Under the pieces are notes generated by a model. It saw nothing but the letters and a program-made list of their open reading frames with translations. It was not told the origin of the DNA and searched no databases. The translations under genes were made by a program, and so were the position numbers. Of a stretch of DNA of 52,260 bases, positions 25,903 through 40,959 are shown piece after piece (positions within the stretch are counted from its first letter, which is position 1; every line of letters starts with the position of its first letter). Source of the stretch: an uncultured Actinomycetes bacterium (GTDB lineage Bacteria; Actinomycetota; Actinomycetes; S36-B12); the NCBI GenBank assembly GCA_903832025.1, contig CAIKZY010000076.1, positions 1 through 52,260 of the forward strand, in the 5' to 3' direction.

Positions 25903-26322
25903 ATGTCGACATTTCGACCGAGGCAGATGGGCATCGTTCACGACGTGATTGAGGGTCAAGTGCTGATCATTCGCAGTGACTCTGGCGCCTACTACTCGAT
26001 GGAGGGAACGGGCACTGTGGTGTGGGAAGGCATCCTGCGCGGTGAGTCAGTCGATGCGATCACAGCCAGCGCCGTGCAGCGATACCCGGATACCCCTGAA
26101 CTGGCAGCGGACATCCGGTACCTGTTCGCTGATCTGCAGCGCGAGCAGCTCATCGAAGAGACAACGAGCGCATCCAGCCCCGGCACGACAACGAGCACCC
26201 CGTGGCCGGATACCTGGACAGCTCCGGCACTGGCGATCTTCAATGACATGAAGGATCTGCTGCTGTTTGATCCGATTCACGAAGTTGGTCCCGAAGGCTG
26301 GCCATACGCATCACATGAGTGA
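25903..26322 (+). CDS. PqqD/RRE-family protein with C-terminal leader-like extension
   Basis: RRE pattern (IEGQVLII...GAYYSMEGTGTVVW...DIRYLFADLQREQLI), Ser/Thr linker, then WTAPALAIFNDMKDLLLFDPIHEVGPEGWP. Confidence 0.85.
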   Translation: MSTFRPRQMGIVHDVIEGQVLIIRSDSGAYYSMEGTGTVVWEGILRGESVDAITASAVQRYPDTPELAADIRYLFADLQREQLIEETTSASSPGTTTSTPWPDTWTAPALAIFNDMKDLLLFDPIHEVGPEGWPYASHE

Positions 26323-27316
26323 AGCCGATGCCGCGATCGCCTCGGTCTTGCAGCGCGCCCTGGCCGTCCAAGGCCTGACGCACGCCCAGGCTGCCTTCGG
26401 GCCGATGCAGCTTGAGCTCGGCTGCGATGACGATGAATTCGTGCGGTCCGTACAGCGCGCAGCGATCGCCGAGCAGTCGGCGCACGCGTGGCCGACCCTG
26501 CGGGTGCTGATGCTGACCGCTGCATCACTGCCGTTGGAGCACCTCCCGACGCCACTGCGGCCCACATTCAGGCATGCGGCGGTGCGCGTGATCACCACAC
26601 CCCGGTTTAGCTGTCTGGTCAATCAACACCTCCTCTGGGTCGCCGATCGTCAATCGGCGACGGTCCTGAGGTGGTCCCTGTCCTGCGAAGCAGTTCCGGA
26701 CTGGGAGTCGACCCGTCCATTGCGGTATGCGCTGAACTGGTGGGCCGCCGAGCATGGATCAGCCCTGCTTCATGCTGGCGTGGTCGCGTATCAGGGGAAA
26801 TCAGTCATCTTGACGGGAAAGGGAGGGACGGGGAAGTCCACAACCGTCTGCGCCTGTTTGGACTCACCGCTGTCGGTACTGGCCGATGATTACTGCCTCG
26901 TCCAACCGGCAACTGCTGATTCCGATGCCACCGCGCATGCCCTCTTCAGGGTCGGGCACGTTGATGCCCAGACAATCGCCTTACTGCCCTCACTGCGCAG
27001 CAGGGTCATCGTGGACGATCCGCAGTCAAAGTCGCTCGTGCGACTGATCGAGCAGCCACCGCGACCGGCGAGTATTGCCGCATTCGCCTCGATTACCCGT
27101 GCTCCCGGCGCGGACACGCTCATGCGTCCGACGTCCGCCAGTGCAGTGCTCCAGCAGGCAGCTCCCAGCACCATCGCACAAAGCTATGCCGGGCAGGAGC
27201 ACATCTGGCGAGTTCTGACGCAGATGGTCCAATCCAGCATCTGCGTCGATCTGCAGGTCGGCTCACTGTCGGACGTCCCGCAAGCGTTGCTGCAGACACT
27301 GCGGGACCAACCATGA
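26315..27316 (+). CDS. HPr-kinase-like P-loop kinase 1
   Basis: LLHAGVV, GKGGTGKST and LADDY motifs. Overlaps the upstream RRE gene. Confidence 0.8.
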   Translation: MSEADAAIASVLQRALAVQGLTHAQAAFGPMQLELGCDDDEFVRSVQRAAIAEQSAHAWPTLRVLMLTAASLPLEHLPTPLRPTFRHAAVRVITTPRFSCLVNQHLLWVADRQSATVLRWSLSCEAVPDWESTRPLRYALNWWAAEHGSALLHAGVVAYQGKSVILTGKGGTGKSTTVCACLDSPLSVLADDYCLVQPATADSDATAHALFRVGHVDAQTIALLPSLRSRVIVDDPQSKSLVRLIEQPPRPASIAAFASITRAPGADTLMRPTSASAVLQQAAPSTIAQSYAGQEHIWRVLTQMVQSSICVDLQVGSLSDVPQALLQTLRDQP

Positions 27317-28029
27317 TCACCCGTCCGGTGACCGTGGTCATCCCTGCGCACAATGCCGCGGGAACGATTGCCGCAACGTTGCGTTCACTGGGCAATCCCG
27401 CGCGCATCATTGTCGTCAATGATCGCTCACAGGACAGCACCGTGGAACAGATCACTGCATGCGGCATCGATGTTGACGTGCTCCACAGCACGCACCCAGG
27501 ACCTGGTGCTGCCAGGAACCACGGAGCGGTGCACGTCAGGACGCCATACATTGCGTTTTGCGATGCTGATGATCAATGGGTCCCGGGACGACTTGATGCG
27601 GACCTGGACATCCTGAGCCGCCGACCCGACATCGAGATTCTCCTGGGCAGCACCCGGTATGAAGCAACCGATGCAGCCTTGCTGGCCGGCCACGTGTTCC
27701 CCGACGACACGCAGAGCCAGGTGATCGCCCACTTCGGAGCGGCAACGATGCGCACGGCTGCCTTTCACCGGGTGGGTCCGATTCGCGAGGACAAAGCCAA
27801 CTTTGAGGATCTGGAGTGGTTCCTGCGTGCTCGCGATCTCGGTGTCGGCCTGGTAGCCCACCGCCGCATCGTTCAGCGTCGACTCATGCATCCATCAAGC
27901 ACCAGTCATGTGCATCCTGGCCGGCCCACGGACATGCTGGCGGTGCTGGCTGAATCGGTACGCCGCCGTGCAGACTCCGGTGTGGAGGTCCTGTCGTTGC
28001 AGGACAGTATTGATATGAATCTGCCATGA
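27313..28029 (+). CDS. Glycosyltransferase family 2
   Basis: VVIPAHN, VVNDRSQD, ARNHG, FCDADD and EDLEW motifs. Confidence 0.9.
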   Translation: MITRPVTVVIPAHNAAGTIAATLRSLGNPARIIVVNDRSQDSTVEQITACGIDVDVLHSTHPGPGAARNHGAVHVRTPYIAFCDADDQWVPGRLDADLDILSRRPDIEILLGSTRYEATDAALLAGHVFPDDTQSQVIAHFGAATMRTAAFHRVGPIREDKANFEDLEWFLRARDLGVGLVAHRRIVQRRLMHPSSTSHVHPGRPTDMLAVLAESVRRRADSGVEVLSLQDSIDMNLP

Positions 28030-29813
28030 AGGTGCTGTGGTGGACTGGGGAGTACCCTCCCGATGTCGGGGGCATCGCGACCGTTGCGCAACAGACCCTG
28101 GCGGCTCTGGCAGCACGTGGGATCAATGCCCATGCATTGATCGCCGCACGAGGTGACGAAGACGGCGTGGACGGCGCGATACCGCTGACGCGCCGGCCGA
28201 TTGCCGAATCGCTTATCGACAGCGACGCTGCCGCGTTCGCGCAGTGGATTGCCTTTGTTCGGAATTTCAAGGATCACCAGCGGGCCGATGTCTACCATGT
28301 GCACCCGGCTGACCCAAGCGTGCTCGCGCACCTGATGACCTTGTCGGCGCATCCTGCCCCGACCATCGTGACCTTTCACCAGCAGATGTTCTCCGTGCTT
28401 CCCTCCGCCGCACCCCAGTCGTTGATCGGACGACTGATCGCCCAGGCGCAGATTGTCACTGCGGTCTCGGCGGCCAGTGCGAACCAGGCGGTTGCGACAT
28501 TGCCGGAGATCGCCGACAAATTGATCGTGATTCCCAACGGACTGCAGGTGTCCGGACCGGTTCTTCCCCTGCCCAGTGCACCGCGGATCGTGGCCGTCGG
28601 TCGTCTTGTGCCCGTGAAGGGTTTCCATGACCTGATCCGGGCAATGGTCACCGTTGTTGAGCAGGTTCCCGACGCTCACCTGCACATCGTTGGTGATGGA
28701 CCTGAGCGTGGCGCGCTGGAGCAGATGTGCGAGCGGCTCGGCCTGACGACATCGATCACGTTCACCGGTGCGGTTGGGCAGGACCAGGTCCGCGCCCTGA
28801 TGGACGCCAGCACGATCGTGGCCATGCCGTCGACGGTTGAGGGCATGCCCATGGTGGCGCTGGAAGCATCTGAACGAGGCCGAGCCATCGTCGGTTCCAA
28901 TATCGGCGGCATTAACGAAGTCGTGCTGGATGGTGTTTCCGGTGTGCTCATTGACCGCAATGACGATTTTATTGACACCTTCGCCAGGATGCTGACCGAC
29001 CTCTTGACAGATCTGCAGCGGGCCGAGGCACTCGGTCTTGCCGCACGGGCACGCCTGGAAGACCGGCAGTCCGTGGATCGAGTGGCAGCCCTCTACGAGA
29101 TCGCGTATCGCGCGGTATGCAGCGATCGACCTGCGCCCCTGGTCAGCGTGATCATGCCCGCGCACAATGGCGAAGCCTTCATTCGACAAGCGGTTGAGTC
29201 GGTGCTCGAACAAGGTCTTGCAGATCTGGAACTCATCATCGTCGATGACGGCTCCACGGATGCAACGCTTCGGGTGCTTGCGCACGTGAGCGACCCACGC
29301 CTGATCGTCCTACCGCAGCCGAATCGGGGAAGCGGCAGTGCCCGAAATGCCGGCATCGCTATCGCCCGCGGTCAGTACATCGCCCACATTGATCACGACG
29401 ATCTGTGGCCCCATGATCGCCTGGCTTGCCTGTGGCAGGTGCTGGACGCGGACCCCGAAATGGATGCCTGCTTTGGGACGGCGATTGAATTCGCTGATCC
29501 GTCGATGCGTGGGAACTACGCGGTGCGCAGCGAGCCGAGGACCACGCGGTTCCCGACCACCGGACTGATTCGGGCTGCATTTCATCGCTCGGTCGGTCCA
29601 TTTCACAGCGAGCCCTTCGGGGACCAAGTGGATTGGTCAATACGGGCCCTGGATGCGGGTATGCGCTACGCCGAGCTCGCGAATATCGTCCTGAGACGGC
29701 GCATCCATGATTCGAACATGTCGCATCGAAATCCCCTCGACAAGGACATGAACAAGCTGCGGCTCCTCAAGCGCTCGCTGGATCAGCGCAAGGGCGACGA
29801 GGACCGGGCCTGA
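28026..29813 (+). CDS. Bifunctional glycosyltransferase (GT4 + GT2 fusion)
   Basis: N-half has YPPDVGG, VGRLVPVKG and EGMPMVALEA. C-half has VSVIMPAHN, VDDGSTD, ARNAG and IDHDDLW. Confidence 0.9.
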   Translation: MKVLWWTGEYPPDVGGIATVAQQTLAALAARGINAHALIAARGDEDGVDGAIPLTRRPIAESLIDSDAAAFAQWIAFVRNFKDHQRADVYHVHPADPSVLAHLMTLSAHPAPTIVTFHQQMFSVLPSAAPQSLIGRLIAQAQIVTAVSAASANQAVATLPEIADKLIVIPNGLQVSGPVLPLPSAPRIVAVGRLVPVKGFHDLIRAMVTVVEQVPDAHLHIVGDGPERGALEQMCERLGLTTSITFTGAVGQDQVRALMDASTIVAMPSTVEGMPMVALEASERGRAIVGSNIGGINEVVLDGVSGVLIDRNDDFIDTFARMLTDLLTDLQRAEALGLAARARLEDRQSVDRVAALYEIAYRAVCSDRPAPLVSVIMPAHNGEAFIRQAVESVLEQGLADLELIIVDDGSTDATLRVLAHVSDPRLIVLPQPNRGSGSARNAGIAIARGQYIAHIDHDDLWPHDRLACLWQVLDADPEMDACFGTAIEFADPSMRGNYAVRSEPRTTRFPTTGLIRAAFHRSVGPFHSEPFGDQVDWSIRALDAGMRYAELANIVLRRRIHDSNMSHRNPLDKDMNKLRLLKRSLDQRKGDEDRA

Positions 29814-30814
29814 AGGAATCGGATCCCGCTGCTCCACGGGGAAACTCGCGGAACAGCTGACCACGGCGGGCCTTGGCGGGCCTGCCGGATGTCATGGCGC
29901 CGCCGGGCAGCTGCCTGCATCCGCTGCCACGCCCCACCGGCAGCGATCTCGTGCAGGACGACCGCATCCATGGGCGCTGCGGACAGTTGCTCAATCACAG
30001 ACCGGGGAATATCGGCACCAACCTGACTCATGAGCCAGTTCAGTCCTTCAGCCACAAGTGGCCCGTACCCGCTGTCCACGGAATGTGCAAGGACGGACTG
30101 CCAAAATTCCGATGTGCGTGAGCCGTCCTGGAGCAACTGCATGGCATCAAGTGGCCACGTGATCGCTGCACTGGCGGGCGCCGTGATTCCCTCAACGATG
30201 GCAAGGGTCAGCAGACACCCATCCGATAGGGAATCCGCGACCGTGGATTCCATGGCTCCGCGTGCAAAGTTGGGCGGTGTTCGACGCAGCTGCGGGAACT
30301 CCCTGCCCCAGGTCAGCACCAGTGAGCGGCCATTGTCGTCAAGAAAGGCGCTGGTCATGCTGGCACGGGGACGATGGCGCATCGCCCATCCGTGAGCCGG
30401 CAGCACCTCCAAGGATCGCGTCCAGTCAGCGGCGCCAATCCACAGGTCGACCGTGGTGACCGGACGGTACGTGGACATGCTGGGGTCCAGCAGCAGGGCG
30501 CTGCCGCGGATCGGTCGGGCGGTGATGTCGTATCGCGTCAGCGCATCACGGGCCTGATGCAGGTGCAGCAGGGTCTGCTGATTGACCACCCAGGCTCGTT
30601 TCCTGAGTCCAAGGAGTAGCGGTGCGTCGGTGCCAAAGTCCAGGTACTGATCTCGGTGTGCCAGGTGATGGAGGATGGCGAATTCTCGGGATGCAGATTG
30701 CTGCAGATCATGTTCGGCGCGCCATGCGTCCCACGCCTGGACAGCGGCGTCTTCATCGGCCAAGGCTGCCCTCAGGAGCAGAGTGTCTGAGTCCGTCAGC
30801 GAGAGAATGCGCAC
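29783..30814 (-). CDS. Nucleotidyltransferase-family protein 1 (NTP_transf_5-like, degenerate motif)
   Basis: PIRGSAL...RPVTTVDLWI aligns to the LKG...R..GDxDL signature. The start (GTG 30814) is inferred. Confidence 0.65.
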   Translation of the reverse strand: MRILSLTDSDTLLLRAALADEDAAVQAWDAWRAEHDLQQSASREFAILHHLAHRDQYLDFGTDAPLLLGLRKRAWVVNQQTLLHLHQARDALTRYDITARPIRGSALLLDPSMSTYRPVTTVDLWIGAADWTRSLEVLPAHGWAMRHRPRASMTSAFLDDNGRSLVLTWGREFPQLRRTPPNFARGAMESTVADSLSDGCLLTLAIVEGITAPASAAITWPLDAMQLLQDGSRTSEFWQSVLAHSVDSGYGPLVAEGLNWLMSQVGADIPRSVIEQLSAAPMDAVVLHEIAAGGAWQRMQAAARRRHDIRQARQGPPWSAVPRVSPWSSGIRFLQARSSSPLR

Positions 30815-31037
30815 CGAGCCGCTCCTGTTCCGTGCCGTGATCGGCAGCGCGGCACCATTGCGTGTCGATGGCTCGCAGATGACCGCGTACGCGTGGAGGA
30901 ATCCTGGCACAGGTGCTCTTGGTATGGATCCACCGTGTCCTGACAGCCGCCACCGGTCGGCCGCACCGTAACGCCAAATGCTCGGCAAGCAACTGCATCA
31001 GCACACTCCGATGACACAGGTGGCACACTGGTGGATC

Positions 31038-32744
31038 ATGGTGGGCCAGACGTTGACCTTGCGGATCACTCCATCAGCGGCGGACTGCGTGGAGAATGTG
31101 TCCTCATCGAGGAACTGGACCCTTGACGATGGCCGCGTGCTGGCCGTCATCGCCGGTCCGCATGCCCTGGACCACACCGCAGTGGTGCAGTGGATGGATG
31201 CAGGCTGCCCGGATCCGGCACCGGTTCGCCAGGGATTCGCCGCGATCCTGGTCGACCCACGATCCGGTTCCACCCAGATGGCCAGCGGCGCACGCAGTGA
31301 GGTCACCCTGCATTGGGCCCTGGAGGGGCAAAGCCTGCTCGTGTCATCGCACCTGCGGGCGTTGTTGGAAGCGCAGGCCACACCGACCTTTGATGAGGAG
31401 GGGATGGCGCGCTACCTGTGGCGTGCCAGTGACCCTTCAGAGACGATGTATGCAGGGGTCACGCGGCTGCCTGCCGGCCATCACGCACGGTGGCGCCCGG
31501 GAACGCGGCCGCACCTCATGCGCTGGTTCTGGCCACAGCGCACGGACGTTTCCACTGCTGCGAACTTTCCAGGTCAGCTCGGTGACGTCATTGCCGATGC
31601 GGTGCGACAGTCACTGCCGTCAGGCGGCACGGTTGCCTCACATCTGTCCGGCGGACTGGACTCCACGACCGTGACTGCCCTGGCTGCCGCGCAGGTTCGC
31701 GGTCATGGCGGTACGATCCAGGCGCTGAGCCACCTGGTCACCCCGGAACGCTGGCCAGCGTGGCTGAGTCCTGATGCCGATGATTCCCCGTTCGTCGAGG
31801 CGTTTGTCCGAGGCACACCGGGTGTGCAACTCCATCGATTCGATACCCCGCGCCGGAGCATCCTGTCGGCAACGCGAGCGGTGTTTGAGGCAACGGCGTA
31901 CCCCATGCTCAATCCCATAAATGCCCCCTGGCTGCTGGACATCGATGATTGGGTGCGGGCCAACGACGTTGCCCTGGTCCTGACGGGCGTGCATGGCAGC
32001 TTGGGGTTCTCGATCACCCGAGGCCATCAGTACCGACGAGCGATCAGATCAGGCCAGTTTGGGCTCCTGAAACGCGACATGGTTGCCCGACACAGGCTGG
32101 GTGACCGATGGCGAAATATTGGCGCCACGACGGTGTATGAGTTCGCCCCGCGGGCCACTACGACGGTGTTGCGGGTAATCGGCCGCCATGAACCGCGTGC
32201 CAGCACAAACCCGTTGATCATTGCGCCCAAACCCACGGACATGGTCGAGCCAGGAGTCCACAAGGCGGATCGGGAATGGTGGAGCCAGTCCGTCCTTCTG
32301 GATCAACCGGCCCAGTCGCTGATGCAGTTCCCGGTGACAGGGGCGTGGGCCAGTGATCCGCTGGGTGACAGCGAGGTGATTCGCACCCTGTTCTCCGCGC
32401 CAGCATCGGCCTGGCTCGGTGACGGCATGGACCGCGCGTTAGCCCGACGAACGATGCAGGGAGTGGTCGTCGATGAGGTGCGCTTGCGTGCCGGACGAGG
32501 TCTGCAGGGCGCGGACTTCGGTGAGGCGGCGCGCAGCCAGGATCGCGAATTTCAGGAAGCGCTCGAAGAGGTCTCTGCTTCCCCGCTGGCCAACCGATTC
32601 ATCGATGTGCCCAGGCTCGCGTCCACGATGCGGCCGCATACTCCGTACGCCGGCCGATCAGCGCTGGACTGGCAACTGCTTGAAGGACGCATGCTCGGCT
32701 TTGGCCTGTATCTGGCCTGGATCGAAGGATTCCTGCGCCGATGA
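31038..32744 (+). CDS. Lasso-peptide cyclase (asparagine-synthetase-like isopeptide ligase, C protein)
   Basis: SHLSGGLDST ATP motif, YAGVTRLPAGH, LTG, DPLGD and DRALARRTMQGVVVDEVRLR. No N-terminal Cys glutaminase nucleophile. Adjacent to the RRE gene. Start uncertain. Confidence 0.85.
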   Translation: MVGQTLTLRITPSAADCVENVSSSRNWTLDDGRVLAVIAGPHALDHTAVVQWMDAGCPDPAPVRQGFAAILVDPRSGSTQMASGARSEVTLHWALEGQSLLVSSHLRALLEAQATPTFDEEGMARYLWRASDPSETMYAGVTRLPAGHHARWRPGTRPHLMRWFWPQRTDVSTAANFPGQLGDVIADAVRQSLPSGGTVASHLSGGLDSTTVTALAAAQVRGHGGTIQALSHLVTPERWPAWLSPDADDSPFVEAFVRGTPGVQLHRFDTPRRSILSATRAVFEATAYPMLNPINAPWLLDIDDWVRANDVALVLTGVHGSLGFSITRGHQYRRAIRSGQFGLLKRDMVARHRLGDRWRNIGATTVYEFAPRATTTVLRVIGRHEPRASTNPLIIAPKPTDMVEPGVHKADREWWSQSVLLDQPAQSLMQFPVTGAWASDPLGDSEVIRTLFSAPASAWLGDGMDRALARRTMQGVVVDEVRLRAGRGLQGADFGEAARSQDREFQEALEEVSASPLANRFIDVPRLASTMRPHTPYAGRSALDWQLLEGRMLGFGLYLAWIEGFLRR

Positions 32745-32813
32745 GCGGGCCCACCGACCCGTTCCGCCGCTCCTCGGCATAGGCGTCAGTACAGTGACTG
32801 CTATGGAGCAAGC

Positions 32814-33071
32814 ATGAAGGTGATTAGAAGGGTTGGCGTGGTCGATTCCCATATTGATGGGCGCCTGGTCGCGTTGAATTCCGATCTTGAGTTCGTGGAG
32901 CTCGACGTCATGGGGGAGTTCATCTGGTCGCAGACCGCTACTCCCACCGATACAGATCGCATCGTCCAGGCGGTGACCGCCCAATTTGAGGTCGATGTTG
33001 CTACCTGCCGCGAGGATGTCATCCGCTTTCTCCATGAGCTCCACAGTGCCCACTTGATTGACCTCAGCTAG
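32814..33071 (+). CDS. PqqD-family RiPP recognition element (lasso B1)
   Basis: 85 aa, IDGRLVAL...LDVMGEFIW...FEVDVATCREDVIRFLHEL. GGAG RBS. Confidence 0.9.
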   Translation: MKVIRRVGVVDSHIDGRLVALNSDLEFVELDVMGEFIWSQTATPTDTDRIVQAVTAQFEVDVATCREDVIRFLHELHSAHLIDLS

Positions 33072-33174
33072 ATCGCAGGGCCCAATGCGGCGTTCGAGCG
33101 ATCCCTGGGCGATGGTCGAGCATGTGACCTTGGCATGATGTGGACGTGCGCCGAACCCCCGATGGTCTGCAGCA

Positions 33175-34164: not shown

Positions 34165-35333
34165 CTGGGGAGCACCATCCACAACCGAAGGTCGTCGCGG
34201 ATCCGGCCACGCAGCAGCTGCTGACTGAGGCCATCCGATATGTCATGTCAATCGAGCATGGCTCCCGACCGGCAGCATCCAATCTGTCGCAGATCGATCG
34301 CGCAGCGTTCCTTGCTGCGGTTCGTCGTCAGCGCATGGAGATATTCTTGAGCCCCCATCTGGAAGATCTGAGGCTTCCTGATGAGGTCTGTGAGCAGATC
34401 AGCGCGTGGGCTGGTCAGCTCAAGATGCGCGCCATGTCCTGCGCAGTGGCAACGCGCGAGGTCTGGGCCGCGCTGACTGCATGTGGGATTGATGCGCTGA
34501 TCATCAAGGGAATTCTACTCAGCCTGCAGACGACTGGCACCGTGGCCGGCAGAGGCCCCGGTGACGTCGACCTCTGGGTTCGGGGAGCCGACGTCGGTGC
34601 TGCTGCCGAAGAACTGCACCTGCTTGGCTATCGCCGAAGTGCCTGGGCACCCACATCGGATTTCACCACCTGGCGCGGTCGCTACACGCAATGGGCTGCC
34701 TTTGAGTTGCCAATGGACCGAAACGGCCTACCCCTTGACCTCCATTGGCAACTCGCGGGGGCACGCCATGGGCTACCGACGTTTGACGAAGCCTGGAAGC
34801 AGCGTGCCGTGGTCGATATTGGCGGCACGCCGGTGAGCACGTTATCCGCAGAGCATGCGTTCGTGCACAGCTGTTCACACGCTCATCGTGATGGCTGGGG
34901 CTGGCTGCGTTCATTGATTGACATCGATCGGCTTTCGCGCCTGGTGACGTTCGACCCAGCAACTGCCCGGTCATCACGAGCCGTCCGACTGTCGACTGCG
35001 ATGGCCTATGACGTTACGGGAAGCGCCTCGCTTGGTCCGTGGATGCAGTCGGACAGCCCTGCGGTCAAGCGCGCTCGGCGAATCGCGCACACCAAGCAAT
35101 CAGATCTCGGATGGTCTGTTGCCGGTGCCTGGACCGTCCAGTCGACGTGGGACTGGCTGCACCAGTCATTGCAGCTGACCGGCAATGCGGGCGATATCTG
35201 CCGGGTACTGTCATCGTTCGCGCTGCCGCCTGAGTTTTTCGTCGAGCCGTCCTCAGACGGGCCTGTGCCCGTGCCTCGGGCGCTGTTGGCCCGCTTTCGG
35301 AAAATGGCCCGCAGAGTCAGTCACCAGGAGTGA
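34161..35333 (+). CDS. Nucleotidyltransferase-family protein 2 (NTP_transf_5-like)
   Basis: IIKGILL, GRGPGDVDLWV, LDLHWQL, H..HA..DGW and LRSLIDI motifs. ATGA-coupled to kinase 2. Confidence 0.85.
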   Translation: MTGEHHPQPKVVADPATQQLLTEAIRYVMSIEHGSRPAASNLSQIDRAAFLAAVRRQRMEIFLSPHLEDLRLPDEVCEQISAWAGQLKMRAMSCAVATREVWAALTACGIDALIIKGILLSLQTTGTVAGRGPGDVDLWVRGADVGAAAEELHLLGYRRSAWAPTSDFTTWRGRYTQWAAFELPMDRNGLPLDLHWQLAGARHGLPTFDEAWKQRAVVDIGGTPVSTLSAEHAFVHSCSHAHRDGWGWLRSLIDIDRLSRLVTFDPATARSSRAVRLSTAMAYDVTGSASLGPWMQSDSPAVKRARRIAHTKQSDLGWSVAGAWTVQSTWDWLHQSLQLTGNAGDICRVLSSFALPPEFFVEPSSDGPVPVPRALLARFRKMARRVSHQE

Positions 35334-35829
35334 CATTGATGTCGTCAGGCTCCAGACCGGATGGCACGGCAAGGACCATGGTGGGCTGAAACCCGTCAGC
35401 AGCAGGTCCGCCTACCACCGCTCCGCGACGGCCAACCAGCCATGCGTGCGCATCCCAGGTACTGTCAGGGTTTCGACGCAGACCGATGACCACGACACCG
35501 CTGGCACCTCTGCGGCGGAGCATGATCTGGGCAGCTGCTGCCTGGGCCAGGCAGCTGGGCTGGCCGGGCAGCCAGCGAACGCCGCGATGAACAGCCCAGC
35601 TCACCGACGCCTCCAACTGGTTGTCTGCTGCTGTTGGCATGGTGCGGTCTGGGTATTCAGTCCACGCCGTTGGCACCGGGCGCACCGAACCGAGCACTCC
35701 GGCCCACCAGCGCATCGGCAGCATGGCGCGCGCGAAGGTTGCCAGGGCAATCAGCGTTATCGCTTCGCCGGTGAGCGCACGTCCATGCCAGCGATCGGCG
35801 ATCGGCGTCTGAGGTCCGTCAGTCATCAT
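35317..35829 (-). CDS. Lasso-peptide leader peptidase B2 (transglutaminase-like)
   Basis: SCLAQAAAAQIMLRRRG, VVIG and DAHAWL motifs carrying the catalytic Cys and His. Confidence 0.9.
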   Translation of the reverse strand: MMTDGPQTPIADRWHGRALTGEAITLIALATFARAMLPMRWWAGVLGSVRPVPTAWTEYPDRTMPTAADNQLEASVSWAVHRGVRWLPGQPSCLAQAAAAQIMLRRRGASGVVVIGLRRNPDSTWDAHAWLVGRRGAVVGGPAADGFQPTMVLAVPSGLEPDDINVTPGD

Positions 35830-35862
35830 CTGAAGCATACGTGCAGGGCATAGCATTCCAAC

Positions 35863-37623
35863 GTGGTCGGCGAAAACGAAGCAGGGATATTCGCGTCCCT
35901 GCGATCAGATGCGCTGTCACTGCTGCGCACGGCCTTTCGGCTCTCTCCGCGAAGAAGCGTCCTGCAACTGCTGTTTTTGAGCATCAGTGGATTTACCGGG
36001 AGTGTCGGCCTGCTCCTGCTCATTCCCATCGTTGACACCATCGCGCATCCAGGTGCTCGACTCACGCTTCCGCTGGTGGGGAGTGTGAGTCTGGGAGCCT
36101 TCCCGTTGTGGAGCATGCTCCTGGCCTTCGTCTGCCTCATTGGCGTGCAGGCAGCCGTTCAACGTCTTGGCCTGATTAATGCCATGCGCATCCAGCAGGA
36201 AATTGTCGATTTCCTTCGGCAGCAGGCGTTCAATGCTGTGCTGCACGCACGCTGGGAATTCATCCTGTCCAAGCGGCGAAGCGATTTCGTCGAAGTGATC
36301 ACCGTCGGCGCGATGCGATCAGGCATTGCGTTTCAGCAGCTGACGCAAGCTGCTGTGGCACTCGTGTTCGGCTTGGCAACCGCAGCCGTGGCGATCCTGG
36401 TCTCGCCGGTGATCGCCGGACTGTCAATTCTCGGGGTGGTCCTGGCTGGCTGGATTCAGCTCAGAAGCGCTCGGCCCGCATATGCCCTCGGCCGGCAATA
36501 CGGGGAACGCTCACGTCATCTGCAAGCGGTGGTCACCGACTCGATGGACTCACTGCGACTGATTCGAGCCCACGACGCCTCGCGGCTGTGGGCCGAGCGC
36601 ATGTCCGAGGCATTTACTCTGGCCCGCGATGTTCAGGTCTCGACAGTCAAGAGGACATCGGCGACTGCCGCGTGGACCTCGGTGCTCCTGGCCGGGGCAG
36701 CCGCGCTGCTGATCCTGATTGCGGTGCAACTGTCCGTACCGCCGACACTGATTATCGTGATCGTGCTGCTCGTGGCACGCATGGCACGACAGATGCAGCT
36801 GCTGGCCACGTTGTTCGTGCAACTTGCCGGATTGCTCCCTGCGGTGGGGGACCTTGCCGATCTCACCCGACAGGCTCGGGACTGCGCGGAGGTGCCGGCT
36901 GATGGACACGGTGACTCACTGGGATCCGTGGTTTCAGCCGATCCTCTCGTGGAACTTCGTCAGGTCACGTACTGCTATCCCGGGTCCCATGCCGGGGTGC
37001 GTGAGGTCAACATGATGTTGCGCAGAGGAGCAATCACCGCGCTCAGCGGTCGCACCGGTTCAGGAAAGTCCACGACGGCCGACCTGGTTCTTGGCCTCTT
37101 GACTCCGCAATCCGGCGAGGTCCTCGTGTCCGGCGAGGTGTTGACCTCGGCTGATCTTGCAGCGTGGCGGCGCCATGTTGCGTACGTACCGCAGGAGACC
37201 GTGCTGATTCCCGGGACACTCCGCGAGAACCTGACGTGGTCGGCGCCCACTGCTGTGTCGGACGAGCAATGCTGGAAGGCCCTGGACCGCTCCGCTGCCA
37301 CATTCGCCCATCAGCTGCCCGAGGGCCTGGACACCCTGCTCGGTGATCGCGGCGTGCGTCTGTCGGGCGGGGAACGCCAACGTGTGTCCATTGCTCGAGC
37401 ACTCCTGCGCGAGCCACAGCTTCTGGTCCTAGACGAGGCGACGTCGGCATTGGATGACGACACGGAGGAGGAGATTCTCCACCTGTTGTCGCAACTCATT
37501 CCTCAGGTGACCGTCTTGGTGATTGCCCATCGACGCTCGACCCTGGAGGCGGCCGACACCGTGGTCCACCTCAGCCATGGTCGTGAAGATGGGAATTCGC
37601 GTCGGCCCATGCGTCGGCCATAG
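35863..37623 (+). CDS. ABC exporter, fused permease/ATPase (lasso D-like)
   Basis: N-terminal TM domain, then GRTGSGKST, LSGGERQR, LDEATSALD and IAHR motifs. Confidence 0.92.
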   Translation: MVGENEAGIFASLRSDALSLLRTAFRLSPRRSVLQLLFLSISGFTGSVGLLLLIPIVDTIAHPGARLTLPLVGSVSLGAFPLWSMLLAFVCLIGVQAAVQRLGLINAMRIQQEIVDFLRQQAFNAVLHARWEFILSKRRSDFVEVITVGAMRSGIAFQQLTQAAVALVFGLATAAVAILVSPVIAGLSILGVVLAGWIQLRSARPAYALGRQYGERSRHLQAVVTDSMDSLRLIRAHDASRLWAERMSEAFTLARDVQVSTVKRTSATAAWTSVLLAGAAALLILIAVQLSVPPTLIIVIVLLVARMARQMQLLATLFVQLAGLLPAVGDLADLTRQARDCAEVPADGHGDSLGSVVSADPLVELRQVTYCYPGSHAGVREVNMMLRRGAITALSGRTGSGKSTTADLVLGLLTPQSGEVLVSGEVLTSADLAAWRRHVAYVPQETVLIPGTLRENLTWSAPTAVSDEQCWKALDRSAATFAHQLPEGLDTLLGDRGVRLSGGERQRVSIARALLREPQLLVLDEATSALDDDTEEEILHLLSQLIPQVTVLVIAHRRSTLEAADTVVHLSHGREDGNSRRPMRRP

Positions 37624-37861
37624 ACTTAGGCATGGAGTCCACGACACGCCAGCCCTATCAAGCCCCCCCTACCGCCCCGAATTGTGGTCGCCCTTCAGTC
37701 GGCCCAGGGGAACACCGGTCAGCCCGGTAGCGACGGCTACCTCAATTACGGCTCCGCACCGTTCTAACGTGTCGCATCAGGCGAATGCCCCAATACACCG
37801 AAGATCGACCAGCCACCATCAAGCCAGGTATATCCTGACCACGCACGCGCGTGCGGGGTCT

Positions 37862-37891
37862 GGTGAGCATCCAAACGGTGAGCATCCAAAC
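37862..37891. repeat. 15-bp tandem direct repeat GGTGAGCATCCAAAC x2 directly before the first precursor RBS
   Basis: Two perfect copies read directly. Confidence 0.75.
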
Positions 37892-37902
37892 GAGGGAGTC
37901 AT

Positions 37903-38034
37903 ATGTCGGACAACGAGCATCGCAAGCCATACGCAGCGCCGCAAACGCCGCGCGTGGTCTCGACGCTGGCACTGTCATCCGCGACATTCACGTATGCAGG
38001 GACAGACTCGGGCTTCTACGCCTCAGTCACCTGA
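37903..38034 (+). CDS. Putative lasso precursor A1, 43 aa: MSDNEHRKPYAAPQTPRVVSTLALSSATFTYAGTDSGFYASVT
   Basis: Translated by hand. GAGGGAG RBS, YxxP leader motif, one Asp in the core region; paralogous to A2 and A3. Confidence 0.85.
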   Translation: MSDNEHRKPYAAPQTPRVVSTLALSSATFTYAGTDSGFYASVT

Positions 38035-38258
38035 GCGATCCCAGCATGCTGAAGGACCGATACGCAGATCTCCCCGGTTGGCGTGGATCGGAAACTGAGC
38101 ACTGCAGTATGGGGAGCCGTTGGCTCACAGTCCGGTGGGGCTCGCGACCGTTCCGATCGAGACCGTTCCGCCGAGACAGACATTCCTCGAAGGCTTCGGT
38201 ATAGGGTGATGACCTGAGCATCAGTCAGGTCAGCTCGGATTGGTATTAGAGGAGTGTC

Positions 38259-38396
38259 ATGTCAGAAAACGTAGATCGCAAGCCGTACGTAGCACCTGAG
38301 GCGCCGCGCGTTGTCTCGACACTCGCGATGTCAGCTTCGATGTACTTTGGCGGGTCTGGAGCTGACAACGCCTTGTACTCTTCCACACCTGTGTAA
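38259..38396 (+). CDS. Putative lasso precursor A2, 45 aa: MSENVDRKPYVAPEAPRVVSTLAMSASMYFGGSGADNALYSSTPV
   Basis: Translated by hand. AGAGGAG RBS, same leader pattern and conserved G-x-D. Confidence 0.85.
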   Translation: MSENVDRKPYVAPEAPRVVSTLAMSASMYFGGSGADNALYSSTPV

Positions 38397-38612
38397 CCAC
38401 CTCGCCGAAGTCAGCAGGATTCCGAACTTCTGGGCGGACGGGTTCGGCACGTGAAGATTGCAGCGTGGGGAATCTCGATTCCTGGTCCTGCCGATGTCGT
38501 AATCGTTCAGCGGGAGACCGGTACCGCAAGTCCGACATCCAGCTTGGGCAGCAGTCGGGGAATGAATTGGATGCCAGAATGGTGTCCAATCGCATCGGTA
38601 GGGAGGGATTTC

Positions 38613-38747
38613 ATGTCCGACATCGCAGATCGCAGGCCCTATGTAGCGCCGGCCGCTCCACAGGTTGTCGCGACGATCGTGGGAGCGGCGGTGACCTACT
38701 ACGGTGGGTCTGGAGCCGATAGTGGTTTCTACGCTTCATACAACTGA
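38613..38747 (+). CDS. Putative lasso precursor A3, 44 aa: MSDIADRRPYVAPAAPQVVATIVGAAVTYYGGSGADSGFYASYN
   Basis: C-terminal part of track ORF 38451..38747. GGGAGG RBS before ATG 38613; paralogous to A1 and A2. Confidence 0.85.
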   Translation: MSDIADRRPYVAPAAPQVVATIVGAAVTYYGGSGADSGFYASYN

Positions 38748-38879
38748 ACGATCGACGCTGCGTGATCAGGCATGACCCCTATGCACCTGCTGTCCAGGTT
38801 CTGCCGTTGAGGACTTCGTCGCCAGGAAGCCAAGATTGACCGTGTCGAAGTCTTACTGGGCTCACGGTGGAGGAGGCCT

Positions 38880-39857
38880 GTGGACGTGAAGCACTCCTTG
38901 CCCTCAACACCGTTGGTGAGCGTCATCATTCCTGTCCAGGATCGAATTGATTTCCTGGGTGCTGCACTGGCAAGTGTCCGAAATCAAACCGTCCATGACC
39001 TAGAAGTGATCATCGTCGATGCCGGGTCGACCCAGGATGTCGGCGGGTTCGTCAGGCATATTCAACGGACCGACTCCCGGTTTCGCTTCGTGCGAAGCGA
39101 TGCCAGGCTGAGCGCGGCAGAGGCCAGAAACCTGGGTTTGCAGCAAGTGCGGGCGCCGTACGTCGCTCATCACGACTCAGACGACATCATGCAGCCGATG
39201 CGGTTGCACCAGCAATTGTCTGCTTTCGACGCACCAGATCTTGAGTGTGTGGCTGGATGCATGCTGGGGATGAGTGCAGCAGGACTGCGTCTTTCGACCA
39301 TGGCCTCGCAAGGGACGACGGATGCTGCAACGGCGATGACTGATCTAGAAGTCAGATGGCGCTTTCCAATTTTGATGCCTTCGATGACCTCAACGCTCAT
39401 GATGCGGACGCAAACCCTGCGGGATATGGGCGGATTTTCTACGAACTACACCACCTGCGATGACTATGTCACCATGGCTACTCTGCTTGACCGGGGAAGA
39501 GTCGTGCGCATTGGCGAATATGTCACAAAGTACCGACAGCACGACCGTCAAATTTCCACGTCGAGGAATATCGAGCAACAAGTGCAGCTGTCGCTGCTGC
39601 GACAGCGCATCATCGCCTCGCGAGTCAGCGCCAAGGTCGCACTCGGTCCGGTCATGACCCTCACCCTGCCCAACCTGCCCGAATCAACGACGCACCGATA
39701 TCACCGTGAGGCGCTGTCCCTGCTCGACGCGCTGTTAGAGAGCTTTCTGGACGAGCATCAGCCACGTGAACAGGATCAAAAGTGGATCCTGCACGACTAT
39801 CGACAGCGAAGGCACGCCTTGATGCAGCAAGCCGGCCTTCGTGATGACACCGCATGA
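38880..39857 (+). CDS. Glycosyltransferase family 2
   Basis: VSVIIPV, IIVDAGS, ARNLG, HDSDDI, CDDY and YRQH motifs. Confidence 0.9.
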   Translation: MDVKHSLPSTPLVSVIIPVQDRIDFLGAALASVRNQTVHDLEVIIVDAGSTQDVGGFVRHIQRTDSRFRFVRSDARLSAAEARNLGLQQVRAPYVAHHDSDDIMQPMRLHQQLSAFDAPDLECVAGCMLGMSAAGLRLSTMASQGTTDAATAMTDLEVRWRFPILMPSMTSTLMMRTQTLRDMGGFSTNYTTCDDYVTMATLLDRGRVVRIGEYVTKYRQHDRQISTSRNIEQQVQLSLLRQRIIASRVSAKVALGPVMTLTLPNLPESTTHRYHREALSLLDALLESFLDEHQPREQDQKWILHDYRQRRHALMQQAGLRDDTA

Positions 39858-39888
39858 CGCGGCAGCCCCGCCCACGGCTCATGAACTG

Positions 39889-40959
39889 CTAGATGACAGG
39901 GACCTGCCAGAAGACGGCGGACCAGTCGATTACCTGGAGCTCTGCTGTGATGTGGTGCTTTGCGCGGAACTCCTCCACCGCCGCACGGCAGGTATCAATG
40001 CAGTAGTCGTCGATGATGACGAAACCACCTGGAGTGACTTTCGCGTAGAGCGACTCCAGCACTTCAGTGGTGGACTGGTGGAGATCGCCGTCCAGACGCA
40101 GCAGGGCGATCTGATGGATTGGCGCCGTCGGCATCGTGTCGCTAAACCAGCCTTGCAGGAATTCAACCCGATCGTCCAGGAGCCCGAAGGCCGCAAAGTT
40201 CTCACGCACGTCGTCAAGCGAGACGGCAATTTTCCCTGCGGATTTGGCCCAGAACGCGTCATCGGGATATCGCTCAATGTCGGGGACCGGTAGCCCTTCG
40301 AATGAATCGCACACCCACACGCGTCGCTGCGGGTCTTCGTGTGCCTCCAGTACGGCCTTCATCATGATGGTCGCCCCGCCCCGCCAGACTCCTGTCTCGA
40401 CGAAGTCGCCGGGAATCTGCTCATTCATGACGTATTCAGCGAGCGCGCGGACATTTCGCAGTCGTGGAAAGCCAATCATCGTGAATCCCGGCATGCTTCG
40501 AAGGCCATGGTTGACCGCGTAGCCTGCGAGCAAGGAATCCACGTCGGGGCCTTGCGGGCCATTCTCGGGCGCCTTGTACAACAGGCCCAGCAGCGCGCGC
40601 TCGGTCAGGTCCAGGTAGCGGGCACGGAGGTCCCGAGAAGCCTGAGCGGACGTAGGCACCGGCTGGATGTCACCCTCAACGAGTCCCAGGGATCGAAGAT
40701 CCTCAGTAAAGCGTCGCACATCGGACTGAAGTTGTTCAGCTTCCGCGTCAAACTCCTCGAGCAGGCGACTGACGGTCTTGTCAACCGAGGATGTCTCGCG
40801 CAAGGCGGTCCACATCGAGCGACCAACCTCGTCAAGCTCGATGAGCTCCAAGGTCACCATGTTCACCACGACGCACGCTTGATCATCAAACTCCTCGTGA
40901 GCATGTGAGATCACCCGCACTTCGTCCCAGGGCGTTGGGGAAGATTCGTTGGTGCTCAT
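39889..40959 (-). CDS. RRE (PqqD)-TylF/MycF/NovP-type O-methyltransferase fusion
   Basis: N-terminal ~95 aa RRE (VVVNMVTLELIELDEVGRSMW...LLEEFDAEAEQLQSDVRRFTEDLRSLGLV). C-terminal TMIG, PGDFVETGVWRGG, DSFEGLP, GWFSDT, LRLDGD and IIDDY motifs. Confidence 0.88.
   Translation of the reverse strand: MSTNESSPTPWDEVRVISHAHEEFDDQACVVVNMVTLELIELDEVGRSMWTALRETSSVDKTVSRLLEEFDAEAEQLQSDVRRFTEDLRSLGLVEGDIQPVPTSAQASRDLRARYLDLTERALLGLLYKAPENGPQGPDVDSLLAGYAVNHGLRSMPGFTMIGFPRLRNVRALAEYVMNEQIPGDFVETGVWRGGATIMMKAVLEAHEDPQRRVWVCDSFEGLPVPDIERYPDDAFWAKSAGKIAVSLDDVRENFAAFGLLDDRVEFLQGWFSDTMPTAPIHQIALLRLDGDLHQSTTEVLESLYAKVTPGGFVIIDDYCIDTCRAAVEEFRAKHHITAELQVIDWSAVFWQVPVI

Follow-up and report, generated by a model that had tools for sequence, protein, structure and literature searches.

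The genes at positions 25903-40959 of the window (the whole stretch of DNA analysed, 52,260 nucleotides) raise the question of whether one pathway or two separate systems are encoded there. A preliminary description read them as a single, heavily tailored lasso-peptide cluster, and all of the genes that it listed were found in this interval. Its boundaries hold because the genes on both flanks, an acyl-CoA ligase upstream (24075-25733) and a ZIP transporter and DEAD helicase downstream, are housekeeping genes. The three RRE domains, three GT2 domains and one GT4 domain that it counted are also present, with scores given in the lists below. Its statement that this enzyme set occurs in no characterised lasso pathway agrees with the literature searched, in which no description of the architecture of either unit defined here was found.

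Judged by gene content, synteny, motif conservation and fold similarity, all of which were directly observed, the region looks less like a single pathway than like two adjacent units: a lasso-type cluster, unit A (~31038-40959), and unit B (25903-30988), which consists of RRE1, K1, GT2a, a GT4-GT2 fusion and N1. A lasso unit lying next to a lasso-independent cassette, both of them peptide-modifying systems, is the favored explanation, with a probability of roughly 0.6. Three genes, B2, N1 and the PqqD-TylF fusion, are encoded on the minus strand.

Lasso core and precursors of unit A

The genes of unit A are as follows.
30978-32744, plus strand: C, lasso-type macrolactam cyclase; likely start near 31038
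32814-33071, plus strand: B1, stand-alone RRE; Pfam PqqD 54.6 bits
33175-34164, plus strand: K2, HprK-like kinase; Hpr_kinase_C 27.8 bits, under the cutoff of 33.3
34161-35333, plus strand: N2, NTP_transf_5 protein; 111.8 bits
35317-35856, minus strand: B2, leader peptidase; Transglut_core3 61.8 bits
35863-37623, plus strand: ABC exporter, MsbA/HepA-like; ABC_tran 110.8 bits
37632-37767, plus strand: precursor A1, frameshifted in this assembly
37903-38034, plus strand: precursor A2, 43 aa
38259-38396, plus strand: precursor A3, 45 aa
38613-38747, plus strand: precursor A4, 44 aa, from an inner ATG of the ORF 38451-38747
38880-39857, plus strand: GT2c glycosyltransferase; Glycos_transf_2 80 bits
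39889-40959, minus strand: PqqD(RRE)-TylF fusion, O-methyltransferase, 356 aa; TylF 278.9 bits, PqqD 49.1 bits

The lasso core set named in the preliminary description is complete. The cyclase scores 56.5 bits on Pfam Asn_synthase; a profile match to it begins at 31035, and its SGGLDS motif (residues 224-229) shows no variation across 10 homologues. Lasso cyclase models of NCBIfam match under cutoff (NF033535, 71 bits, cutoff 525), as does lasso_PqqD_Bac for B1 (47.4 bits, cutoff 80). These sub-cutoff scores of the cyclase and B1 sit uneasily with the two-unit explanation. B2 exceeds the curated cutoff of NF033537 lasso_biosyn_B2 (67.1 bits against 33), and its minus-strand placement recurs in related loci. 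The exporter matches the NCBIfam models HepA_fam_ABC and MsbA under cutoff.

Four tandem precursors were found where three had been described. The additional one, A1, is broken by a one-base frameshift: its leader and core lie in consecutive frames, split in a C run near 37663, and one base at 37663 is missing in one contig each of two runs (X4 and X5) from two other studies. All four have a leader with the motif PYxxPxxPx[LV]V, followed by an invariant Asp and, at Asp+6, a Ser that is likewise invariant. When 19 precursors in all were numbered with the leader Tyr fixed at -17, position -2 was Ser in 17 and Ala in two. The Asp fell at core position 9 in 15 precursors and at position 10 in four, and these four would need a 10-residue ring. 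Ser was found at Asp+6 in 19/19, followed by 2-6 residues to the precursor end. Thr(-2) was absent from all 19, and core position 1 was Asn, Val, Ser, Lys or Ala, so that the usual Gly/Ala/Ser/Cys is not the rule there; these features and the larger ring also speak against the two-unit explanation.

The missing Thr(-2), the variable position 1, the Asp at position 10 in some precursors and the low NF033535 score are in keeping with a product that is not a threaded lasso but a linear or differently cyclised phosphoglycopeptide, and linear phosphorylated relatives of lasso peptides (LPP) are reported (PMC13381572). That outcome is nonetheless considered improbable. The B2 score lies above a curated lasso cutoff, the cyclase family alignment retains the ATP-binding motif and ~90 further invariant positions, the Asp is present in 19/19 precursors, and Ser is a conservative swap for Thr at -2. 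Non-Thr residues at -2 are described as tolerated in the Bsf system (PMC10368454; PMC9266682).

Proposed tailoring genes of unit A and their closest relatives

Eight related loci, with cyclases 41-44% identical to that of unit A, were compared; they represent about four lineages, with several near-identical pairs. K2, N2, GT2c and the fusion adjoin the lasso core throughout, over the extent of the contigs. L012, L014 and L034 are complete and show the gene order cyclase, GT2c, PqqD-TylF (minus strand), K2, precursors, B1, N2, B2 (minus strand), which L013, L015, L033, L035 and L036 share up to their contig ends. GT2c orthologues (36-40% identity) directly follow the cyclase in 8/8 loci, fusion orthologues (45-68%) occur in 7/7 and K2 in 6/6 of the loci that reach the respective position, and N2 orthologues are 41% identical in L012, L014 and L034. 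Upstream of the cyclase, these eight loci carry unrelated genes (an Opp importer, a beta-lactamase-fold protein). Synteny, which had been suggested as a check, is kept for K2, N2, GT2c and PqqD-TylF, and to that extent the preliminary reading of a lasso pathway with dedicated phospho, glyco and methyl tailoring is supported, whereas none of RRE1, K1, GT2a, GT4-GT2 and N1 occurs in the loci with a 41-44% identical cyclase.

K2 scores 40.8 bits against TIGR04352 (cutoff 200), and the best NCBIfam match of GT2c is MftF, under cutoff. PqqD-TylF fusions make up 21 among the best 120 matches listed. The methyltransferase domain of the fusion matches nine PDB sequences (NovP, 4cdz, 5i10, four MycF variants and two CalS11 entries). 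Alignments to TylF/MycF/NovP (PDB 2wk1, 4x7u and others) span ~240-255 residues at E 1e-57 to 4e-64, with NovP 2wk1 at 3.9e-64 and the four MycF variants at ~1e-57. MycF and CalS11 are sugar O-methyltransferases by the PDB table, and the earlier assignment of a sugar O-methyltransferase is borne out by these matches to solved enzymes. These alignments also show conserved DSF and DGD stretches, which probably contain the metal-binding and catalytic Asp residues. TylF, MycF and NovP are free-standing enzymes with glycosylated polyketides or aminocoumarins as substrates, whereas the fusion carries a peptide-leader-binding domain and would be a leader-guided O-methyltransferase.

Unit A belongs to a rare family of lasso-peptide clusters seen in lake Actinomycetota and brings along a kinase as well as enzymes for adding and methylating sugars. 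K2, N2, GT2c and the fusion are read as real tailoring genes of a predicted phospho-, glyco-, O-methyl-sugar lasso peptide. We infer each chemical step, modified residue and cleavage site of the following scheme, and likewise the substrate of unit B. B1 would bind the leader, and K2 would phosphorylate a Ser, for which the invariant residue in the Y-x-S motif close to the C-terminus is the likeliest candidate. N2 and GT2c would attach sugar to this Ser, and the RRE-fused TylF enzyme would O-methylate a sugar hydroxyl with the leader still on. B2 and B1 would then cut off the leader after the Ser(-2)-x site, the cyclase would close a ring between the freed N-terminus and the invariant Asp, at position 9 or, in some precursors, 10, and the product would be exported by the ABC pump.

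One of the closest known systems is pseudomycoidin (psm) from Bacillus pseudomycoides, in which a lasso core is likewise combined with an HprK-like kinase and PsmN, for which the NTP_transf_5 family is named in the pseudomycoidin paper; phosphate is placed on Ser, and one or two hexoses on that phosphate (PMC6993621; PMC9266682). No recognisable GT, methyltransferase or RRE-fused enzyme is reported for psm, whereas unit A has all three. The modified Ser of psm is the C-terminal residue, unlike the Ser here with its 2-6 following residues, and the host phylum is Bacillota rather than Actinomycetota (PMC6993621; PMC9266682). In paeninodin-type and Bsf systems, the kinase is reported to act with B1 on the linear precursor (PMC10368454; PMC9266682). 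The leaders preferred by paeninodin RREs are of the WxxP type, those of the present precursors YxxP; Bsf is phosphorylated on Ser3 and has Gly1-Asp8, unlike unit A precursors, and neither a GT2 nor a TylF enzyme is reported for these systems (PMC10368454; PMC9266682).

Davasins are also actinobacterial lasso peptides with sugars on Ser, although IgtG glycosylates the mature lasso directly at the Ser hydroxyl, and no kinase, NTP transferase or methyltransferase is reported for the pathway (PMC11912497). Methylation in unit A would precede leader removal because an RRE is fused to the TylF enzyme, unlike IgtG (PMC11912497). StspM of a lassomycin-type pathway is likewise an O-methyltransferase encoded in an actinobacterial lasso cluster, and its substrate is the precursor prior to maturation. 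It is described as belonging to another methyltransferase family (modelled on mitomycin 7-O-MT), and its product is a C-terminal peptide methyl ester, not a methylated sugar (PMC9266682).

The unit B cassette and its relation to unit A

Unit B contains five genes.
25903-26322 (25888 also as start), plus strand: RRE1, with PqqD domain (39.1 bits, Pfam cutoff 23.4), Ser/Thr-rich linker, WTAPAL motif and tail, DMKDLLLFDPIHEVGPEGWP
26315-27316, plus strand: K1, P-loop kinase related to HprK; TIGR04352 41.1 bits, cutoff 200
27313-28029, plus strand: GT2a glycosyltransferase; Glycos_transf_2 77.1 bits; start overlaps K1 stop
28026-29813, plus strand: GT4-GT2 fusion; Glycos_transf_1 121.7 bits, Glycos_transf_2 107.5 bits; start overlaps GT2a stop
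29783-30988, minus strand: N1, divergent NTP_transf_5-like; 18.5 bits, under the cutoff of 31.2; start uncertain

The K1 ORF opens at 26267, its likely start is the ATG at 26315, and M17 of the ORF is the conserved start among homologues, which carry PF27840. Both kinases and both nucleotidyltransferases of the preliminary description exist, although the kinases are weakly HprK-like (K2 under cutoff, K1 with no match in the Pfam search) and N1, in contrast to N2, is a weak match. K1 and K2 share a remote likeness only, as do N1 and N2 (31% identity over 118 residues). Unit B was found to have neither a separate precursor gene nor a dedicated peptidase, which counts against the two-unit explanation.

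RRE1 ends in an [FYW]xxPxL motif that resembles those of leaders, and in a DPIHEV..GWP tail that is conserved. The motif, as [FYW]xxPx[LIVMFA], is present in 64/67 full-length homologues, and no Ser, Thr or Tyr of the tail is invariant among the homologues, another point against the two-unit explanation. In loci with a K1-type kinase, the tail motif appears once per locus and only at the end of the RRE reading frame; a tail profile search gave at least 1,807 protein clusters at E<=1e-10. The AF2 model (mean pLDDT 86.8; 97 over residues 101-110, the motif) has a strand at 111-113 whose possible pairing partners all lie in the RRE sheet; in fold, RRE1 is best matched by the lasso B1 proteins 5v1v, 5v1u and 6jx3. 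RRE1 would bind its own C-terminal WxxPxL motif in cis, and K1, N1 and the three GT domains would act on RRE1 itself (Ser/Thr-rich linker or tail) or on a recruited substrate.

Unit B is one copy of a widespread, uncharacterised and putative peptide-glycosylation cassette that lies outside lasso pathways elsewhere. Among 80 loci with a K1-type kinase, from many phyla, an RRE1-like gene was found in 73, GT4GT2 or GT2 matches in 75, and N2-like and N1-like genes in 25 and 19, while cyclase, B2, B1 and TylF were found in none. LPP (linear polyphosphorylated peptides) loci have a comparable second set of RRE, HprK-like kinase and NTP transferase (with or without ABC), beside paeninodin-like lasso clusters, often among sugar genes and with patchy distribution, as here (PMC13381572). 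The defining features of LPP, an SpI-type signal peptidase and separate precursors of 35-200 aa that carry the motif YxxPxVLxHQxIxFETxxS, are both missing from unit B, and LPP are reported as restricted to Bacillota; in unit B the leader-like motif is instead fused to the RRE and GT genes are in the operon (PMC13381572).

The single pathway of the preliminary description, in which three RREs serve the same leaders and both kinases, both nucleotidyltransferases, four GT domains and the methyltransferase build a methyl-capped oligosaccharide on a phospho-lasso, is not upheld, as unit B matches this lasso-independent cassette. It is regarded as rather unlikely, though it has several points in its favor. 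Unit B adjoins the cyclase in the window and in two closer relatives, L031 (97%) and L037 (62-69%), where N1 is also conserved (97% and 53%, respectively); N1 is divergent from the cyclase gene with a short gap between, and the units may therefore cooperate. Unit B lacks a precursor gene, four precursors offer ample substrate, and the actinobacterial lasso RRE FusB1 is reported to bind non-cognate leaders (PMC13381572). Against it stand the 0/80 count of lasso genes, the lack of unit B in the 41-44% relatives, a second RRE1-K1-N1 cassette without lasso genes on contig C162 of the same genome, and the W-type motif of RRE1, modelled as docked, where the precursors are Y-type. The lasso precursors are probably not substrates of the unit B enzymes. 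The heavy oligosaccharide reading consequently survives for one of the four GT domains, GT2c.

A further possibility, held to be very improbable, is that the GTs of unit B, perhaps together with GT2c, are ordinary genes for cell-envelope polysaccharides that neighbor a phosphorylated lasso cluster. In L037, RRE1 is closely preceded upstream by Wzy_C and Bac_transf genes, the more distant lasso cluster of L038 adjoins Wzz and GT4 genes, Bacillota clusters embedded in capsule loci are reported (PMC13381572), and all GT matches fall under every specific NCBIfam cutoff. The stop/start overlaps from RRE1 through K1 and GT2a to GT4-GT2, however, point to one operon, GTs accompany the K1-type kinase in nearly all of the 80 loci, and GT2c keeps its place after the cyclase in every related locus, paired with the RRE-fused methyltransferase.

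Gene content and precursor peptides

The gene map was drawn from the ORF listing together with Pfam and NCBIfam scans, and the gene inventory and boundaries of the preliminary description, which had placed one heavily tailored lasso pathway at 25903-40959, proved correct. The source genome is 2.2 Mb in size and 98% complete, the window being its contig C76, with a G+C content of ~62% and no clear island in GC content. Habitat was read from sequencing runs X1 and X4 (lake water) and X5 (aquatic) only.

Genes of the predicted tailored lasso region and its flanks (window positions; strand given where minus; domain scores in bits)
24075-25733, acyl-CoA ligase, upstream flank
25903-26322, RRE1, PqqD-fold (RRE) protein
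26315-27316, K1, HprK-like kinase with P-loop; no Pfam match; TIGR04352 41 against a cutoff of 200
27313-28029, GT2a, glycosyltransferase
28026-29813, GT4-GT2 fusion
29783-30988, minus, N1, NTP_transf_5 18.5, under cutoff
30978-32744, cyclase C with SGGLDS
32814-33071, B1, PqqD 54.6
33175-34164, K2, HprK-like kinase with P-loop; Hpr_kinase_C 27.8, under its cutoff of 33.3; TIGR04352 40.8 against 200
34161-35333, N2, NTP_transf_5 111.8 against a cutoff of 31.2
35317-35856, minus, B2, leader peptidase over the curated lasso B2 cutoff (NF033537 67.1 against 33; Transglut_core3 61.8)
35863-37623, ABC exporter
37632-38747, precursor genes
38880-39857, GT2c, glycosyltransferase
39889-40959, minus, PqqD-TylF fusion, METHYLTRANSFERASE
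41233-44521, ZIP transporter and DEAD helicase, downstream flank

The stop and start codons of RRE1, K1, GT2a and GT4-GT2 overlap, which suggests that these four genes form one operon. The acyl-CoA ligase was considered as a cluster member and is treated as a neighbour, since its 33% identical counterpart beside the related cluster at locus L012 is not conserved at locus L034. Further upstream, 18675-23805 contains an MMPL-family membrane protein, recognized by reading its translation, and a cytochrome-b-like membrane pair, all unrelated to the cluster.

The ATP motif of the cyclase, the Cys protease B2 and the PqqD-fold B1 mark the region as a predicted lasso cluster. The cyclase matched Asn_synthase at 56.5 bits and the curated lasso cyclase models below cutoff, and the SGGxDS residues S224-S229 were invariant in 10 homologues. 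N2 is PsmN-like at the level of its Pfam family, NTP_transf_5.

Three precursor genes are intact and encode peptides of 43-45 aa. In a fourth (37632-37767), leader and core both match but lie in successive frames, with the break at a C run. The base at 37663 is absent from one contig each of runs X4 (depth 2.3) and X5 (depth 6.4), which come from separate studies, while run X1 did not cover the position. The fourth gene is thus intact in related strains, and the frameshift in the window reflects an assembly error or else a break specific to this strain. Related strains also vary in the spacer that precedes precursor A2 (37839-37876): X5 has small insertions (8, 2 and 2 bases) and X4 lacks 15 bases. 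The array of tandem precursors is variable. A 245-base contig of the lake metatranscriptome library X15 matched 38315-38559, which covers the end of A3 and the A3-A4 spacer, and differed there at 6 places; at best it hints at expression, as such a match does not show transcription.

Precursors from the window and related loci (n=19) were compared with a reference lasso pattern, in which a YxxPxL-type leader has Thr at -2 and the core starts with a small residue and has Asp/Glu at positions 7-9. All 19 contain the leader motif PYxxPxxPx[LV]V, an invariant Asp after a Gly/Ser-rich stretch and, exactly six residues past that Asp, an invariant Ser that closes a [YH]-x-S motif and has 2-6 further residues behind it. 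The window precursors have T, V and N as their last residues and do not offer a C-terminal Ser as phosphate acceptor. With the leader Tyr set at -17, where published work places it (PMC10368454), position -2 is Ser in 17/19 and Ala in 2/19, the Asp falls at core position 9 in 15 precursors and position 10 in four, and the first core residue is Asn, Val, Ser, Lys or Ala. In an alternative register, the core would begin at a conserved aromatic residue 7-8 residues before the Asp; the predicted cleavage site is not fixed by sequence alone.

Conservation of the lasso core with its predicted tailoring genes

The cyclase family is sparse, with 12 matches at E<=1e-10 among 5.8 billion proteins. At E<=1e-40, only the window's own genome was matched among 401 sampled genomes of the phylum, and none of 8 genomes of the same genus (completeness 76-98%) gave a match. 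In a search for related loci with the single cyclase protein as query, the sole match was a weak one to a Rhizobium asparagine-synthase-like protein. Related loci, which came from Actinomycetota MAGs and lake metagenomes, were obtained by alignment-based scans, and the window proteins were compared with them by tblastn.

A cyclase of 41-44% identity was found in eight loci (L012, L013, L014, L015, L033, L034, L035 and L036); several of these are near-identical pairs, so that about four lineages are sampled. An orthologue of GT2c directly follows the cyclase in all eight, the PqqD-TylF fusion lies on the opposite strand in 7/7 loci long enough to contain it, and K2 is present in 6/6 loci of sufficient length. 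Only L012, L014 and L034 are long enough to show what comes next, namely precursors, B1, N2 and B2, the last on the minus strand. The synteny of K2, N2, one GT2 (GT2c) and PqqD-TylF with the lasso core is thus conserved as far as the contigs reach. In the same eight loci, RRE1, K1, GT2a, GT4-GT2 and N1 were all absent and unrelated genes lie upstream of the cyclase. Directly upstream of the L012 cyclase (2828-6615) are a PEP mutase-NTP-transferase fusion, a TPP-dependent enzyme and a methyltransferase, a trio that resembles a set for phosphonate biosynthesis, which might supply the peptide or a glycan.

Genes of both sets occur together only in two closer loci. L031 (97% identity) has the gene order of the window from K1 through the ABC gene, and L037 (62-69%) that from RRE1 through the cyclase, with Wzy_C and Bac_transf genes upstream in place of the acyl-CoA ligase. 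A distant lasso cluster in L038 (6302-16253; cyclase 31%) contains an HprK-like kinase, B1, B2 and an NTP_transf_5 gene, and orthologues of GT2c and TylF are absent from that locus. The L038 cluster adjoins a GT4, a Wzz/tyrosine-kinase-like gene and a GT4-methyltransferase fusion.

The start of the PqqD-TylF fusion is most likely at 40959, giving a protein of 356 aa. Its TylF domain scored 278.9 bits against a cutoff of 23 and aligned to solved members of the family with E values from 1e-57 to 4e-64, including NovP (E 3.9e-64), 4cdz/4ce0, 5i10 and MycF (E 7.5e-58); CalS11 was matched more weakly. MycF and CalS11 are sugar O-methyltransferases by their PDB titles. Taken together with the presumed roles of NovP and 4cdz, these matches point to a sugar hydroxyl as the probable substrate. 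The DSF and DGD stretches, whose Asp residues we take to be catalytic and metal-binding, are conserved in the printed alignments with the PDB matches. Stand-alone TylF-family proteins of ~50% identity are very common; PqqD-TylF fusions made up 21 of the 120 top matches listed, the closest ones included. The presence of a leader-binding domain in a sugar methyltransferase implies that the peptide bears its sugar before the leader is removed.

Predicted lasso pathway and known systems

In the scheme that we infer for the lasso genes, B1 would bind the PYxxP leader and K2 would phosphorylate a Ser, the first choice being the invariant Ser at Asp+6. Ser3, in a register cut six residues earlier at a conserved Thr/Ser, would be the second candidate because the Bsf and LPP (linear polyphosphorylated peptide) products are phosphorylated on Ser3. 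N2 and GT2c would then put a sugar on or beside the phosphate, and the RRE-TylF enzyme would methylate a sugar hydroxyl. The leader would be cut by B1/B2, the cyclase would close the ring on the invariant Asp, and the ABC pump would export the product. Placed two residues beyond the conserved Tyr, a bulky group would lie immediately beneath the ring, in keeping with the lock suggested for pseudomycoidin (PMC6993621).

In the literature consulted, glycosylated lasso peptides come in only two kinds: pseudomycoidin, which has hexose attached to phosphate, and the davasins, whose Ser carries glucose (PMC11912497). In pseudomycoidin, the phosphate is accompanied by hexose whose attachment requires PsmN (PMC6993621). 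IgtG glycosylates Ser of the mature davasin lasso peptide directly (PMC11912497). Kinase, NTP_transf_5 and GT2 genes beside lasso genes have been reported in silico in Firmicutes (PMC7533575). The NTP_transf_5 protein is common to the present locus and the pseudomycoidin/paeninodin type, but the predicted acceptor here is not a C-terminal Ser. The TylF domain, in comparison with TylF, MycF and NovP, lies over its curated cutoff and near the solved members. In open-access full text, no lasso peptide was found described together with TylF or macrocin. Searches of open full text for combinations of RRE, HprK, PqqD and glycosyltransferase returned nothing beyond PMC7533575, PMC6993621, PMC11912497 and PMC13381572.

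As judged from gene content and synteny, a kinase, an NTP_transf_5 protein, one GT2 and an RRE-fused sugar methyltransferase form a newly combined, conserved predicted tailoring set on a lasso pathway. Such a set would represent a new tailoring logic, and the locus would be a test bed for the role of PsmN-type enzymes, which is unsettled in both published studies of them. The RRE fusion predicts that the sugar is built and methylated on the leader-bearing peptide, and the enzymes may in that case be usable as leader-guided tools.

The upstream cassette and its RRE with a leader-like tail

The genes at 25903-30988 differ from their counterparts in the lasso unit. K1 and K2 share 29% identity over 48 residues around the P-loop only, and N1 and N2 share 31% over 118 residues; the family annotated on K1 homologues is PF27840. 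K1-type relatives were sought with an 8-sequence alignment in one genome per species, a 16-sequence alignment having given no usable conserved stretch. They were found in Cyanobacteria, Chloroflexota, several proteobacterial groups, Myxococcota, Acidobacteriota, Bacteroidota, Actinomycetota and others. The window proteins were compared by tblastn with the best 80 of 228 such loci, found among the first 600 pattern matches. RRE1 was matched in 73/80 of them and GT4-GT2 or GT2 in 75/80; ABC and N2 were each matched in 25, and N1 in 19. A match to cyclase, B2, B1 or TylF occurred in none of the 80. Clustering at the ORF level agreed, adding another NTP_transf_5 group and SDR, TPR and sulfotransferase neighbours, and it revealed no peptidase among the conserved neighbours. 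A representative order, that of L043 (Scytonema), is PqqD, NTP_transf_5, kinase, acyltransferase, three GT2s, epimerase, TPR and NTP_transf_5. TPR-sulfotransferase genes occur in some stand-alone cassettes (L049 821-2179; L081 7509-8276), and sulfation may be part of the system in some lineages.

A second cassette is present in the window's own genome, on contig C162 at ~19817-21800 (locus L122 9818-11800). It comprises an RRE1-like gene (WTAPSV, DPIHD..GWP tail) and, after it, genes resembling K1 and N1; a GT2 gene precedes the set and an ABC gene follows it, and no lasso genes lie nearby. The genes from RRE1 through N1 are a neighbouring cassette of a large, unnamed family. The preliminary description, which had assigned all of these enzymes to one lasso pathway, was therefore half right: the kinase, NTP_transf_5 protein, one GT2 and RRE-fused sugar methyltransferase belong with the lasso core, and the other half of the enzymes, missing from the eight 41-44% loci and kept apart from cyclase and B2 in the 80 K1-type loci compared, belong to the cassette. 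The two units may nevertheless cooperate, because they are adjacent in L031 and L037.

Of the two findings, the cassette is the more surprising, as a leader-like motif is built into its RRE. In RRE1 homologues, which are ~140-160 aa long, the PqqD domain is followed by a low-complexity linker that varies (it is rich in Ser/Thr in the window protein) and then by a conserved C-terminal stretch, consensus FxxPxLxKYTDMQDLLLLDPIHEVDExGWP. The pattern [Y/W/F]xxPx[L/V/I], reported for leaders bound by lasso and LPP RREs (PMC13381572), fits the first part of this tail and is found in 64/67 full-length homologues; the motif reads WTAPAL in the window and WEAPSL in L037. It occurred exactly once in 69 of the 84 sources searched and was absent from 15, always lying at the end of an RRE reading frame. 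The homologue alignments contained no invariant Ser, Thr or Tyr in the tail, and no Pfam or NCBIfam model covers it.

An AlphaFold2 model of RRE1 (65 sequences) had a mean pLDDT of 86.8. The motif (residues 101-110) was modelled at pLDDT 97, followed by a strand (111-113) and a helix (116-121), and residues 121-139, the most conserved end, were at 55-58. Since the RRE domain contains every other strand of the model, the tail strand is predicted to pair with that sheet, as leaders do. The best PDB matches were the lasso B1 structures 5v1v, 5v1u and 6jx3, which were solved with leaders (TM ~0.85 on target). A complex prediction of RRE1 1-92 with its own tail (98-139) gave a median of 0.64, and 0.46 with chain 1 replaced as a control; this result was counted neither way.

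In the second part of the scheme, the RRE would hold its own tail while K1, N1 and the three GT domains modify the linker, the tail or a recruited substrate. A tentative reading, to which we give roughly one chance in four, is that RRE1-type proteins (at least 1,807 clusters at 50% identity, defined by an RRE, its own leader-like motif and a DPIHEV..GWP tail) are a large, so far unrecognised class of self-presenting scaffolds. Through its linker or tail, each would carry a phosphoglycan made by an HprK-like kinase, an NTP_transf_5 enzyme and several GTs, coupled here to a new lasso family with a leader-dependent O-methylated phospho-sugar.

The LPP system is a second set of RRE, kinase and NTP-transferase beside paeninodin-type clusters; an SpI peptidase is its defining feature, and its reported range is Bacillota only (PMC13381572). 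A discrete RRE1, K1 and N1 are likewise present here, K1 and N1 below cutoffs, but there is no SpI-type signal peptidase, B2 being the only peptidase match among the scanned ORFs of 25903-40959. The separate-precursor motif YxxPxVLxHQxIxFETxxS was also found in no ORF here; instead, the leader-like motif is fused to the RRE. With this cassette, the pairing of a lasso cluster with a second phospho-peptide system would reach outside Bacillota. The cassette also indicates that RRE proteins with an integral leader-like motif make up a very large family that has no name.

A tail-only profile run against 1.84 billion proteins matched 3,158 representatives at E<=0.001, of which 1,807 reached E<=1e-10. 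Among the 150 top matches listed, 111 were >=130 aa with the motif at or near the C-terminal end, and 39 were short proteins, which might be peptides in their own right. Of 12 short ones examined, at least two (P0172 and P0181) appear to include the end of an RRE domain and look like fragments. The tail motif was found in 5/41 related genomes and in 0/8 genomes of the same genus. The sequence DLLLLDPIHEV..GWP without FxxPxL ends two longer frames (G014:C1:1226745-1226831, 1106 aa; G035:C6:41690-41779, 257 aa), and the tail motif may be appended to other proteins too.
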